Shown here one piece after another: positions 1-4,456 of a stretch of DNA of 4,456 nt. Position numbers and translations under genes: made by a program. Position 1 is the stretch's first letter, and every line of letters starts with the position of its first letter. The DNA lies in the IMG/VR virus record IMGVR_UViG_2706794698_000010. One strand, given 5' to 3'. Below the pieces are notes generated by a model. That model saw nothing but the letters and a program-made list of their open reading frames with translations. It searched no databases and was not told the origin of the DNA. The DNA is from a virus (lineage: Duplodnaviria > Heunggongvirae > Uroviricota > Caudoviricetes).

Positions 1-1
1 G

Positions 2-88
2 GGACGGAAGTCGCTGTCGTTCTCAAAATCGGTGGAGCTGCATGACAAAGTCATCGGGCATTATCTGAACATAAAACACTATCAATAA
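2..88 (+). CDS. insB: IS1 transposase InsB (InsAB') C-terminal fragment, 5'-partial at window edge
   Basis: Frame 2 translation [28 protein letters not shown] followed by TAA at 86-88, matching the known C-terminal end of IS1 InsB. Confidence 0.85.
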   Translation, partial: [28 protein letters not shown]

Positions 89-103
89 GTTGGAGTCATT
101 ACC
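81..103. repeat. IS1 terminal inverted repeat (IRR), left copy
   Basis: atcaataagttggagtcattacc is the reverse complement of the IS1 end GGTAATGACTCCAACTTATTGAT. IS1 sequence stops at 103/104, where identity with the right-hand copy also stops. Confidence 0.85.
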
Positions 104-421
104 CGTTAAAACATCTGCAGATAATGACGTTGACTTGGATACAGATGGATTCAGACAACTGAGGATATCGTGCCCATCCCCTTCTGCCAGCGGTGCGATT
201 ATATTGAGAAAAGCTTCTTATGAATTCGGCAAAAGTATAGGTGTATTTGATTTTGCAAACAATGCATCACCAGCGACGATGACATTTTTGATCCCAATAT
301 ATAAAGATGATGATTTTGATTCAGATACTGTTGGTTTTACATTTGCGTTCAAGATGCCAAGAGGCCAGTTTTTTGTAGATGTAAAAGAAAACGGGAATAT
401 CAGAGCTGGAGTTAATGTTAA
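104..421 (+). CDS. Hypothetical protein fragment, open in frame 3 from the IS1 junction into the first N run; probably the 3' portion of a gene 5'-truncated by IS1. Product unknown.
   Basis: About 106 sense codons with no stop in a roughly 40% GC stretch (the rest of the window is about 55% GC), which is unlikely by chance in AT-rich DNA. No in-frame ATG/GTG near the 5' end; the track's TTG start at 90 lies inside IS1. Uses AGA/AGG/ATA codons. Alternating hydrophobic pattern (VGFTFAFKM, QFFVDVKENGNIRAGVNV) suggests beta-rich structure. No family recognised. Confidence 0.4.
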
Positions 422-1751
422 NNNNNNNNNNNNNNNNNNNNNNNNNNNNNNNNNNNNNNNNNNNNNNNNNNNNNNNNNNNNNNNNNNNNNNNNNNNNNNN
501 NNNNNNNNNNNNNNNNNNNNNNNNNNNNNNNNNNNNNNNNNNNNNNNNNNNNNNNNNNNNNNNNNNNNNNNNNNNNNNNNNNNNNNNNNNNNNNNNNNNN
601 NNNNNNNNNNNNNNNNNNNNNNNNNNNNNNNNNNNNNNNNNNNNNNNNNNNNNNNNNNNNNNNNNNNNNNNGAAATGCAGGGCTGTATTGACGGGCAGGT
701 GACCGTTTCTCACTCCGGCACTGAAGGCCGTATGTGCCGGGTTTCATTTCAGTTTGTTGAGAGCGGGGAACTGTCATTTCCGGTCGCCGGAGCTGCAACC
801 GCCAGAAAACTGGAGGAGTCGTCCGTATTCCTGGATGAGTTGATTGAAGACATGTTCGGCGATTTTGATCTCGCGGGAATACCGGACTTTATTCAGAACG
901 ATGTTATTGCCCGGACGACCGATATGCTGGGAACCGTTCAGACAGCTTTCAAAATGGTTAATTCGGCTGTTTCTGCCGGAGCGAGACTACTGCAGGGCGA
1001 TTTATCCGTCATTCTGATGCCGCCGTCGGTTGCCAGTGATTTTGTGCATACGTTGCAGGATACCTGGCGGGCCGGAACCCGGCTGGTGGATAACACACAG
1101 GATCTGGTGCAGTCCATAACGACAATGTCCGGCATTACGCTGGACCNNNNNNNNNNNNNNNNNNNNNNNNNNNNNNNNNNNNNNNNNNNNNNNNNNNNNN
1201 NNNNNNNNNNNNNNNNNNNNNNNNNNNNNNNNNNNNNNNNNNNNNNNNNNNNNNNNNNNNNNNNNNNNNNNNNNNNNNNNNNNNNNNNNNNNNNNNNNNN
1301 NNNNNNNNNNNNNNNNNNNNNNNNNNNNNNNNNNNNNNNNNNNNNNNNNNNNNNNNNNNNNNNNNNNNNNNNNNNNNNNNNNNNNNNNNNNNNNNNNNNN
1401 NNNNNNNGCACAGGACAGGATGAGAGAGCGCAACCACCCACGCGGGAAAATCTCACCATCATACGCAAATCGCTGAACGCGGCGATTGAACAGGAGCTCA
1501 GGCGTACGGCGGATGACAGGCTGTTTTTTCAGCTGACGTCATTACGTACAGAACTGAACCGGGATATTCAGGCGCGTCTGGTTCAGACGGAGGAAACCGC
1601 AGAGCGAACGCCAGCGGAAGTTCTGCCTGCGCTTGTTCTGGCTGCGTCATGGTACGACGATGCGTCCCGTGAAACTGATATCCTGGATCGAAATGCCATC
1701 TCTCATCCGGGCTTTGTTCCGGTCAGGGCATTAAGGGTACCCGTCAGATGA
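415..1751 (+). CDS. Mu gpN-like DNA circularization protein (tail/baseplate-associated); 5' end approximate because it is hidden in the N run, and interrupted by a second N run
   Basis: Visible coding segments 672-1146 and 1408-1751 share frame 3 and end at TGA 1749-1751, overlapping the next gene's ATG. The motif TEGRMCRVSFQFVESGE resembles the distal part of the DNA_circ_N domain as I recall it, and the gene sits immediately upstream of P-Q-V-W homologues as in Mu. Candidate start ATG 415-417 preceded by GGAG 407-410, but this is in frame 1, so it is only valid if the true gap length differs mod 3 from 250. Confidence 0.55.
422..671. other. Run of 250 N (unresolved or masked sequence)
   Basis: Direct observation. 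Hides the junction between the AT-rich fragment and the gpN-like gene, and probably the gpN start. Confidence 1.
1147..1407. other. Run of 261 N (unresolved or masked sequence) inside the gpN-like gene
   Basis: Direct observation. The flanking coding segments are in the same frame and 261 is a multiple of 3, consistent with a length-preserving mask. Confidence 1.
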
Positions 1752-3330: not shown

Positions 3331-3367
3331 NNNNNNNNNNNNNNNNNNNNNNNNNNNNNNNNNNNNN
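3099..3367. other. Run of 269 N (unresolved or masked sequence) covering the gp45-like/GP46-like gene junction
   Basis: Direct observation. Confidence 1.
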
Positions 3368-3767
3368 TGTTAACGGGCGACCCGTGTCGACCGGGGCTTC
3401 GATCGACCTTCTGACGCGTGCTGTGATTATTTCGCTTTTTACATGGCGGCGTGCCGGGCGTGATGATGCACCACGGATATTTGGATGGTGGGGGGATACC
3501 TGGCCTGCGGTTCAGAATGATCGCACGGGGTCGCGTTTGTATCTGTTGCGACGCAGCAAGCTGACAAATAAAACCCCGCAGCTTGCCAGAGATTATGTCC
3601 GTGAGGCGCTGGCGTGGATGGTGGAGGATGGTGTTGCTTCCCGTCTTGATATTAACGCTGTCCGGACCGGGACAGACTCGCTGGCACTTGCCATTACCAT
3701 TTACCAGCGTGACGGCAATATTCACAACATTATTTTTGATGATATCTGGAGTGAACTGAATGGCTGA
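3320..3767 (+). CDS. Phage GP46-family baseplate protein (Mu gp46/V-like); 5' end approximate (hidden in N run)
   Basis: Visible 133 aa contain AVIISLFTWRRA, GWWGD, GSRLYLL, REALAWMVEDGVA and LALAITIY, matching the GP46-family pattern I recall (SLFTDRRA...GWWGD...SRLWLL...EALAWL..DGVA). Stop TGA 3765-3767 overlaps the next ATG (ATGGCTGA). Confidence 0.62.
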
Positions 3768-4434
3768 CAGTCAGTTTTATCGCCCCGGCCTCCCGCAACT
3801 TATTTCTATGATCCGGAGCGATTTATTAACCCGCTTTGAGCAGGATACGCTGCTTCGTCGTATGGATGCGGAAGTGTATGCCCGTGTACAGGCTGCAGCC
3901 GTACACACGTTGTACGGGTATATCGATTATCTTGCCAGAAATCTGTTACCGGACGTGTGTGATGAAGACTGGCTGTACCGGCACGCCAGAATCAAACGCT
4001 GCCCGCGAAAAGAAGCGGTGGCAGCCCGGGGATTTGTGCGCTGGGATGGCGTAGAGGGGACGCCGGTATTGCCAGCGGGAACGCAGATCCAGCGTGATAA
4101 TCAGGTGACCTTTACCACGACGGCGACGGTGACCGCAGCCGATGGTCTTCTCCGGGTGCCTGTTGTGGCAGACGAACCGGGATCGGCGGGGAATACGGAT
4201 GATGGTATTGCCATGCAACTGGGAACACCCGTCAGTGGTCTGCCGTCCACAGGGTACGCTGACACCATTACAGACGGTGAAGATATTGAAAATCTGGAAA
4301 TATGGCGTGCCCGCGTTATGGAACGTTATTACTACATTCCACAGGGGGGCGCAGGTAATGACTCCAACTTATTGATAGTGTTTTATGTTCAGATAATGCC
4401 CGATGACTTTGTCATGCAGCTCCACCGATTTTGA
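3760..4434 (+). pseudogene. Baseplate J-like protein (Mu gp47/W-like) truncated by IS1 insertion; native part 3760-4353 (about 198 codons), then 27 IS1-derived codons up to TGA 4432-4434
   Basis: N-terminal region and the ...GEDIENLEIWRARVMERYYYIPQGGAG... segment fit baseplate J-family features (acidic stretch, LR.R, GG motif). The ORF crosses the IS1 boundary at 4353/4354 and ends in the IS1-encoded tail NDSNLLIVFYVQIMPDDFVMQLHRF. Full-length family members are roughly 350-380 aa. Confidence 0.7.
4354..4376. repeat. IS1 terminal inverted repeat (IRR), right copy
   Basis: ggtaatgactccaacttattgat at the insertion boundary inside the baseplate J-like gene. Confidence 0.85.
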
Positions 4435-4455
4435 GAACGACAGCGACTTCCGTCC
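4369..4455 (-). CDS. insB: IS1 transposase InsB (InsAB') C-terminal fragment, partial, on the minus strand
   Basis: Mirror image of the fragment at 2-88. Minus-strand translation ends ...[12 protein letters not shown] with stop complementary to 4369-4371. Confidence 0.85.
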   Translation of the reverse strand, partial: [28 protein letters not shown]

Positions 4456-4456
4456 C

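Follow-up and report, generated by a model that had tools for sequence, protein, structure and literature searches.

Why should a phage-like stretch of DNA begin and end in the same sequence, turned around? The window, by which the whole 4,456-nt stretch analysed here is meant, carries phage genes between arms at positions 1-103 and 4354-4456. As the preliminary description had stated, these arms are exact reverse complements over 103 nt (100% in a repeat search of the window), and direct base comparison agrees with the search: base 104 is C but would have to be T to pair with base 4353, so that the identity of the arms ends there. The second-longest inverted repeat within the window has only 17 nt, and a perfect 103-nt match in 4.5 kb would be expected by chance at about 1e-55, a figure that is our own estimate and not the output of a tool. 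No match was found in the window with Rfam (gathering thresholds) or with a tRNA scan. Three N-masked runs, 422-671, 1147-1407 and 3099-3367, make up 17.5% of the window. Their lengths differ from those of the real sequence (250 vs 431, 261 vs 252 and 269 vs 259 nt), therefore the true distance from arm to arm is 4,412 nt and not the 4,250 nt of the masked window. The open reading frames called at 90-1751 and 2808-3767 were rejected as genes, being artefacts of N masks that join separate genes.

The arms proved to be the end of the insertion sequence IS1. The arm is matched at 71,705 places, distributed over 4,963 of the 5,426 complete E. coli genomes, where the annotation gives an IS1A/IS1B-family transposase, with 103/103 identity to annotated IS1A/IS1B copies and 7,967 records at 99% identity or more. 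In an annotated 768-bp IS1A copy of E. coli SK1144 (L002, 536-1303) the arm occupies 1201-1303, which corresponds to IS1 positions 666-768, exactly where the preliminary description had placed it approximately. Translation of window positions 2-88 gives 28 residues of the InsB C-terminus, the annotated transposase CDS ends at L002 position 1288, equivalent to window position 88, and the arm is closed by the IRR terminus (...GTTGGAGTCATTACC). The proposals that the repeat is the insB-distal end of IS1, with the InsB C-terminus and IRR, and that it is not a phage feature are thus both upheld by the translation, the CDS end, the terminus and the tens of thousands of copies in E. coli genomes.

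Complete copies of the element were found where longer sequences of the same locus could be read. Eleven such records (L003-L013) match all four window junctions exactly in a pattern search, and every one of them carries a complete 768-bp IS1 on either side, in inverted orientation with IRR facing inward. The contig extension suggested earlier was in this way carried out through relatives, and the view that the phage genes lie between two inverted IS1 copies was borne out in 11/11 records. The left copy spans L003 15-782 and L004 5415-6182. In these two records the copies are 768 bp long, agree with annotated E. coli IS1A at 762/768 positions, and differ between left and right at 0-1 positions. 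Both IRL and IRR are present there, as imperfect terminal inverted repeats of about 23 bp (GGTGATGCTGCCAACTTACTGAT / GGTAATGACTCCAACTTATTGAT), while the window retains IRR alone. The A6C motif of the -1 frameshift lies at IS1 position 307, the InsA ORF has 91 aa, and the flanking copies are matched by PF03811, PF12759 and PF03400, with the DDE_Tnp_IS1 domain present. Sequence identity, length and ends, the insA/insB' arrangement with its frameshift and the target duplication all identify the element as IS1. The true inverted repeat is therefore 768 bp, the full length of IS1.

Two readings of the arms can be weighed against these records. Taken by itself, the window shows 103 nt per side and no more, as would be the case if the arms were genuine 103-bp solo remnants of IS1 ends, whether MITE-like or products of deletion. 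Nevertheless, 768-bp copies occur in all 11 longer records with exact junctions, L004 carries full IS1 copies while being identical to every unmasked segment of the window, and arms of 70 or 44 nt are found instead in other draft contigs of the locus, which fits truncation by the assembler and not a fixed remnant. The solo-remnant reading was rejected on the longer records and the variable arm length, and is extremely unlikely. The window also looks like one complete small contig, and the symmetry of its ends is suspicious; this might suggest a chimeric or fold-back contig in which IS1 is not truly adjacent to the phage genes. Such a pure assembly error is refuted by chromosome-scale records, including the published reference chromosome of S. 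sonnei 53G (L007, HE616528.1; PMC5447701), in which the junctions are accompanied by full IS1 copies and target duplications; its probability is next to nil. The features of the window are collected in Table 1.

Table 1. Features of the 4,456-nt window, with positions counted from its first base.
Feature	Positions	Strand	Basis and remarks
Left IS1 end, IS1 positions 666-768	1..103	+	InsB C-terminal codons 2-88, stop 86-88; IRR terminus ~81-103
Inner copy of the 9-bp target-site duplication of the left IS1, CGTTAAAAC	104..112	.	Also directly before IRL in L003-L013
3' part of a low-GC (36-38%) 160-aa phage ORF, phrog_5586, function unassigned	104..421	+	Runs into first N mask
DNA circularisation / Mu gp43-like tail protein gene (463 aa in relatives)	672..1751	+	PF07157 E=3e-36, phrog_184 (L003 copy); gene calls in L004-L017
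Mu gpP/gp44-like baseplate hub gene, 360 aa	1748..2830	+	Four GpP-like Pfam domains; alignments
Mu gp45-like baseplate spike gene (177 aa in relatives)	2808..3098	+	PF06890 E=2e-26 on L003 3659-4192; gene calls
GP46-family baseplate wedge gene (136 aa in relatives)	3368..3767	+	PF07409 E=4.5e-33, phrog_180
Baseplate J/gp47 gene, first 198 codons (360 aa intact), cut by right IS1	3760..4353	+	PF04865
Inner copy of the 9-bp target-site duplication of the right IS1, GGGGGCGCA	4345..4353	.	Duplicated in L003-L013
Right IS1 end, IS1 positions 666-768	4354..4456	-	Repeat search; full copy at L003 5195-5962 and L004 10595-11362

Between the two elements lies the baseplate module of a Mu-type (phiP27-like) tail, in which DNA_circ_N, the GpP/gp44 hub, gp45, GP46 and Baseplate_J follow one another in the same order as in phiP27 and in an E. 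coli prophage (L001); all Pfam matches of the interior exceed the curated cut-offs. The N masks conceal the start of the DNA circularisation gene and its middle (1147-1407), the 3' end of the gp45-like spike gene and the first codons of the GP46 gene. The hub gene shows a (GCTGGT)n length polymorphism at 2296-2313, and an A8-to-A7 change at 2786-2792 shifts its last codons. Both outermost genes are broken by IS1. The left copy removes about 34 of the first codons of the phrog_5586 ORF, including an N-terminus resembling a signal sequence with a lipobox. The right copy interrupts the baseplate J gene, so that PF04865 (255 positions) is matched over profile positions 2-137 in the window as against 2-255 in the intact L001 gene, and the C-terminal remainder is found beyond the right IS1 in L004-L013. 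The interrupted frame runs on into IS1 for 26 codons before it meets a stop at 4432-4434, and the resulting 224-aa fusion product is exactly Q3YYR0 (Q3YYR0_SHISS) of S. sonnei Ss046, present on 230 contigs.

How the two elements came to flank this segment is shown by their target duplications. Next to the elements, the outer flanks read CGTTAAAAC on the left and GGGGGCGCA on the right; these differ from each other, and each repeats the sequence on the inner side of the IS1 that it adjoins. Both sites are empty in L001, an E. coli prophage that matches the interior at 98.8% identity, and there CGTTAAAAC and GGGGGCGCA occur once each. Because the duplications are separate and the sites are empty in the E. 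coli prophage, the structure is the product of two independent simple IS1 insertions and not of the arrival of a composite transposon, and the segment is not inverted. Neither junction was found by megablast in 5,426 complete E. coli genomes, so the insertions appear to be specific to S. sonnei within what was searched. The inner junctions were likewise not found among GTDB species-representative genomes, but Shigella strains probably do not count there as species of their own, so that this negative carries little weight.

A functional composite transposon of the type IS1-cargo-IS1 (as in Tn9 or Tn1681), which arrived or is able to move as a unit, has nevertheless to be considered, since two intact IS1 copies, identical or one base apart, surround a short segment, and IS1 pairs in either orientation can mobilise the DNA between them. 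Against this stand the 9-bp duplication that belongs to each IS1 separately and the outer flanks, which share no common duplication and supply what is lacking from the two phage genes broken by IS1, in an order that is uninterrupted in E. coli. Furthermore, the neighbours are identical at all places read, and a search for the segment on plasmids returned no copy, the best match covering 4% at 75% identity (GP46). With neither a single duplication at the outer ends nor a second context, the composite transposon is refuted as the origin of the structure, and the reading as a whole is highly improbable.

One more alternative is a segment inverted by the phage itself (Mu G, P1 C or e14 P type), or some other repeat native to the phage. 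Invertible tail-fibre segments between inverted repeats are often found in phages with Mu-type tails. However, the arms here are IS1, and close prophages and phiP27 lack repeats at these sites. No invertase gene was called in the 20-kb loci around the segment, its cargo consists of baseplate and not fibre genes, and the loci read included no isolate with the segment inverted. An invertible segment of the Gin/Cin/Pin type is refuted by the identity of the arms, and this explanation retains hardly any probability.

Very probably, then, the window is a piece of S. sonnei chromosome between two full-length IS1 elements, each the result of its own insertion into a phiP27-like prophage whose tail is of the Mu type. 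One of them sits in the small low-GC ORF that is flanked by the tape-measure gene and the DNA-circularisation gene, the other in the baseplate J gene after codon 198. Their orientations are opposite, with IRR pointing inward and IRL, with the transposase promoter, outward. Combined with an IS3-family element inserted upstream of the sheath gene, the two insertions would be predicted to disable tail assembly, and a disabled tail suggests that the prophage is a decaying remnant whose function has probably been lost, as judged from the disruption of its genes. IS1 expansion in Shigella is well documented, and its reference chromosomes contain 229-348 IS insertions, to which IS1 contributes most (PMC7373316). 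We infer that the IS1 pair is a passive by-product of this expansion. There is only a slight chance that the pair serves as a recombination switch inverting the 4.4-kb baseplate block in a subpopulation or forms a still-mobile composite, or that loss of the lipoprotein-like ORF and of baseplate J was selected during the adaptation of S. sonnei instead of following from neutral decay. The finding itself is already known, in that the elements are ordinary IS1 and the fusion ORF has been deposited; it adds one further documented case of IS1 expansion degrading S. sonnei prophages.

It remains to account for the figure of 103 nt. Four draft contigs (L014-L017) represent this same IS1-to-IS1 piece and end in symmetric arms of 70, 44, 44 and 44 nt around interiors of 4412, 4412, 4418 and 4406 nt. 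Since the arms of other S. sonnei draft contigs are 70 or 44 nt long, the number 103 is not biological; on the evidence of these contigs it would be the depth to which assembly reached into IS1, and no property of the element or the genome. Near-identical IS1 copies are very numerous in the genome and short-read assemblers would be expected to stall at them. Being unable to cross IS1, they would emit the unique 4.4-kb interior as a separate small contig, with the length of IS1 kept at each end set by the k-mer overlap, 103 nt in this case, which may reflect the use of SPAdes under Shovill with k=103. For 186 of 226 index blocks, the largest contig on which the fusion protein occurs measures just 2-5 kb. 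This calls for caution in genome scans: in small contigs of IS-rich genomes, such as those of Shigella, symmetric ends made of perfect inverted or direct repeats are routine, and the length of these repeats is a property of the assembler and not of biology. Contigs of this kind that look like phage are fragments of dead prophages and not mobile units.

Among known systems, the window represents an IS-interrupted prophage remnant of Shigella sonnei, this same locus being present in strains Ss046 and 53G, and only strain-level differences are seen. L003, for instance, deviates from the window in the copy number of (GCTGGT)n and one substitution. The arms are identical to IS1 over positions 666-768 and differ in nothing of substance, except that, the contig ending where it does, each copy is represented in the window by its final 103 nt only. 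Related E. coli prophages are 97-98.8% identical to the window interior. The Stx2e-converting phage phiP27 (AJ298298 / NC_003356) has a baseplate module with 97.4% DNA identity and the order kept, but it lacks IS1 at either site as well as the low-GC phrog_5586 ORF, and its match starts at window position 672. With Tn9 and Tn1681 the locus shares two IS1 copies around a few kb of foreign DNA, and the IS1 copies of Tn1681 are likewise inverted. Unlike these transposons, it shows a duplication for each IS1, native gene order and no sign of movement; since each IS1 has its own duplication and the gene order is native, the structure was assembled in place by two insertions.

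The two ends of the window, positions 1-103 and 4354-4456, are perfect reverse complements whose match breaks at 104/4353, as the preliminary description had stated. In a repeat search of the 4,456-nt window the second-longest inverted repeat was only 17 nt, so that the 103-nt repeat lies far beyond chance. The arm 103-mer has 71,705 matching places in 4,963 of the 5,426 complete E. coli genomes, with a match of at least 99% in 7,967 records, and these matches fall under IS1A/IS1B-family transposase annotation. Within the annotated IS1A of E. coli SK1144 (L002) the arm occupies L002 1201-1303, corresponding to IS1 positions 666-768, the very stretch to which it had been attributed. 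The stop of the window 2-88 translation coincides with the end of the annotated IS1 transposase CDS (L002 1288 = window 88) and the final ~23 nt of the arm are the IRR terminus, which bears out the earlier assignment of the InsB C-terminus and IRR to the arm. Every testable defining feature of IS1 was found in the arms.

An exact search with the left junction revealed one IMG/VR contig (L003), and an exact-protein look-up located the baseplate J/IS1 read-through ORF (window 3760-4431) in 226 index blocks, out of which ten chromosome-scale places were read (L004-L013), including S. sonnei 53G (L007, HE616528.1; PMC5447701). In both L003 and L004, the phage genes lie between two complete 768-bp IS1 copies that are mutually inverted with IRR inward, the arrangement already proposed together with extension beyond the window as its check. 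The left and right copies differ at 1 position in L003 and at 0 in L004, in which all unmasked window segments are identical. Both copies are identical to the SK1144 IS1A at 762 of 768 positions and carry the A6C frameshift motif and the insA ORF. By pattern searches, the four junctions (outer and inner, each side) gave one exact match apiece in every one of L003-L013. Promoter consensus matches, as sequence matches only, were observed in the IRL of both copies pointing inward; they fit the known IS1 promoter position and are not evidence of function.

Both the initial observation and its IS1 interpretation are correct, whereas the length of 103 bp has to be revised, being an assembly boundary of a true repeat of 768 bp. 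In 186 of the 226 blocks, even the longest contig with the fusion ORF measures just 2-5 kb, and the 90% cluster of this ORF contains C-terminally truncated 'partial' S. sonnei versions on ~4.5-kb contigs. Four such whole contigs (L014-L017) are the same IS1-to-IS1 piece as the window. Arm length differs among the assemblies while the biology is constant, and variable arms are the signature expected of de Bruijn-graph contigs that break off inside a multi-copy repeat, after k or k-1 bases of it. SPAdes run by Shovill may often use k=103. In Shigella, IS1 is the most abundant IS, and each reference chromosome carries 229-348 IS insertions (PMC7373316).

The three N-masked runs have wrong lengths, and the real arm-to-arm spacing is therefore 4,412 nt. 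Since the masks are not length-preserving, no coordinate, reading frame or ORF list that spans one is reliable; the long ORFs at window 90-1751 and 2808-3767 are artefacts whose frames run across N runs.

Features of the window, its IS1 reference and related draft contigs; interior genes are listed in order
Feature	Position	Size	Sequence, identity or basis
Annotated IS1A, E. coli SK1144	L002 536-1303	768 bp	GGTGATGCTGCC...GGAGTCATTACC
N-masked run 1	window 422-671	masked 250 vs true 431 nt	unmasked relatives compared
N-masked run 2	window 1147-1407	masked 261 vs true 252 nt	unmasked relatives compared
N-masked run 3	window 3099-3367	masked 269 vs true 259 nt	unmasked relatives compared
Draft contig L014		IS1 arm 70 nt, interior 4,412 nt
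Draft contig L015		IS1 arm 44 nt, interior 4,412 nt
Draft contig L016		IS1 arm 44 nt, interior 4,418 nt
Draft contig L017		IS1 arm 44 nt, interior 4,406 nt
Interior gene 1		160-aa ORF, 3' part	phrog_5586 match (unknown function); no Pfam family match
Interior gene 2			DNA-circularisation/Mu gp43-like protein (Pfam/PHROGs)
Interior gene 3			GpP/gp44-like baseplate hub (Pfam/PHROGs)
Interior gene 4			gp45 (Pfam/PHROGs)
Interior gene 5			GP46 (Pfam/PHROGs)
Interior gene 6		first 198 codons	baseplate J (Pfam/PHROGs)

In L003 and L004, CGTTAAAAC borders the left IS1 on each side, as GGGGGCGCA does the right IS1. Each 9-mer is single-copy at the uninterrupted site in the prophage of E. coli FDAARGOS_944 (L001), the closest IS1-free relative among the matches listed (interior 98.8% identical). 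Therefore, the two IS1 copies entered independently, each by a simple insertion that produced the canonical 9-bp duplication. Arrival as a composite transposon is ruled out, because the outer flanks have no duplication in common, each being just the missing half of an interrupted gene. The structure lacks the features that define a composite transposon, and likewise those of a phage invertible segment. A plasmid search found the segment carried by none, and neither the left nor the right junction was found in the 5,426 complete E. coli genomes or in GTDB species representatives. Nor has IS1-IS1 inversion followed the two simple insertions, since each IS1 keeps two copies of its own 9-mer, where inversion would give one of each. 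All places read have a common order of tape measure, IS1, interior, IS1, baseplate J C-terminus and gp48.

The gene interrupted by the left IS1 (window 104-421 plus the first N mask) is intact at L001 11900-12382, and has a GC content of 36-38% vs ~55% in the tail genes. Its N-terminus VIKPFLMTVAILTSC resembles a lipoprotein signal with lipobox and a strong terminator-like hairpin lies 3' of it (L004 6570-6592), so that this ORF looks moron-like; its product is possibly a surface or exclusion lipoprotein. Of the 30 E. coli prophages listed, only 11 have a match that reaches into the ORF. At the opposite end, the baseplate J/IS1 fusion ORF (window 3760-4434) is Q3YYR0 of S. sonnei Ss046, present on 230 contigs. 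It is recorded as 'putative head assembly protein', a misnomer given its Baseplate_J domain. The locus is already public and the finding already known.

In the S. sonnei chromosomes (L004-L013, ~1-950 and 16660-17150), the prophage remnant adjoins smpB. The tail sheath gene has an IS3-family element (HTH_Tnp_1 + rve) immediately on its upstream side, and an IS4-family transposase is found slightly past smpB, so many IS insertions making a patchwork of the region. Since baseplate J is split and IS1 insertions classically exert polar effects, the tail module has very probably lost its function. The L001 prophage (NZ_CP065613.1 618407-646817) is also decaying, its portal and sheath genes being split by two ISEc60 insertions; downstream of the tail fibre genes it has an ipaHe effector gene with a frameshift. 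FDAARGOS_944 looks EIEC- or Shigella-like; 37 places in its record match the whole window, nearly all presumably IS1 arms.

Two small variations were observed in the hub gene. The copy number of an in-frame hexanucleotide, (GCTGGT)n at window 2296-2313, differs between strains: the window and L015 have 3 units, L016 has 4, and both L017 and E. coli L001 have 2, giving S. sonnei hub products of 360 (L015), 362 (L016) and 358 aa (L017). This accounts for the 4,406-, 4,412- and 4,418-nt interiors, and the repeat might be of use as a small VNTR marker for S. sonnei. The A-tract at window 2786-2792 is A7 in the window and S. sonnei L017 vs A8 in E. coli L001. With one nucleotide lost, the final hub codons are out of their original frame, so that the hub ORF (stop at 2830) overruns 23 nt into the gp45 gene (start at 2808). 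Among phages the nearest relative is phiP27, an Stx2e phage, which is 97.4% identical from window 672 on but is devoid of the low-GC phrog_5586 ORF.
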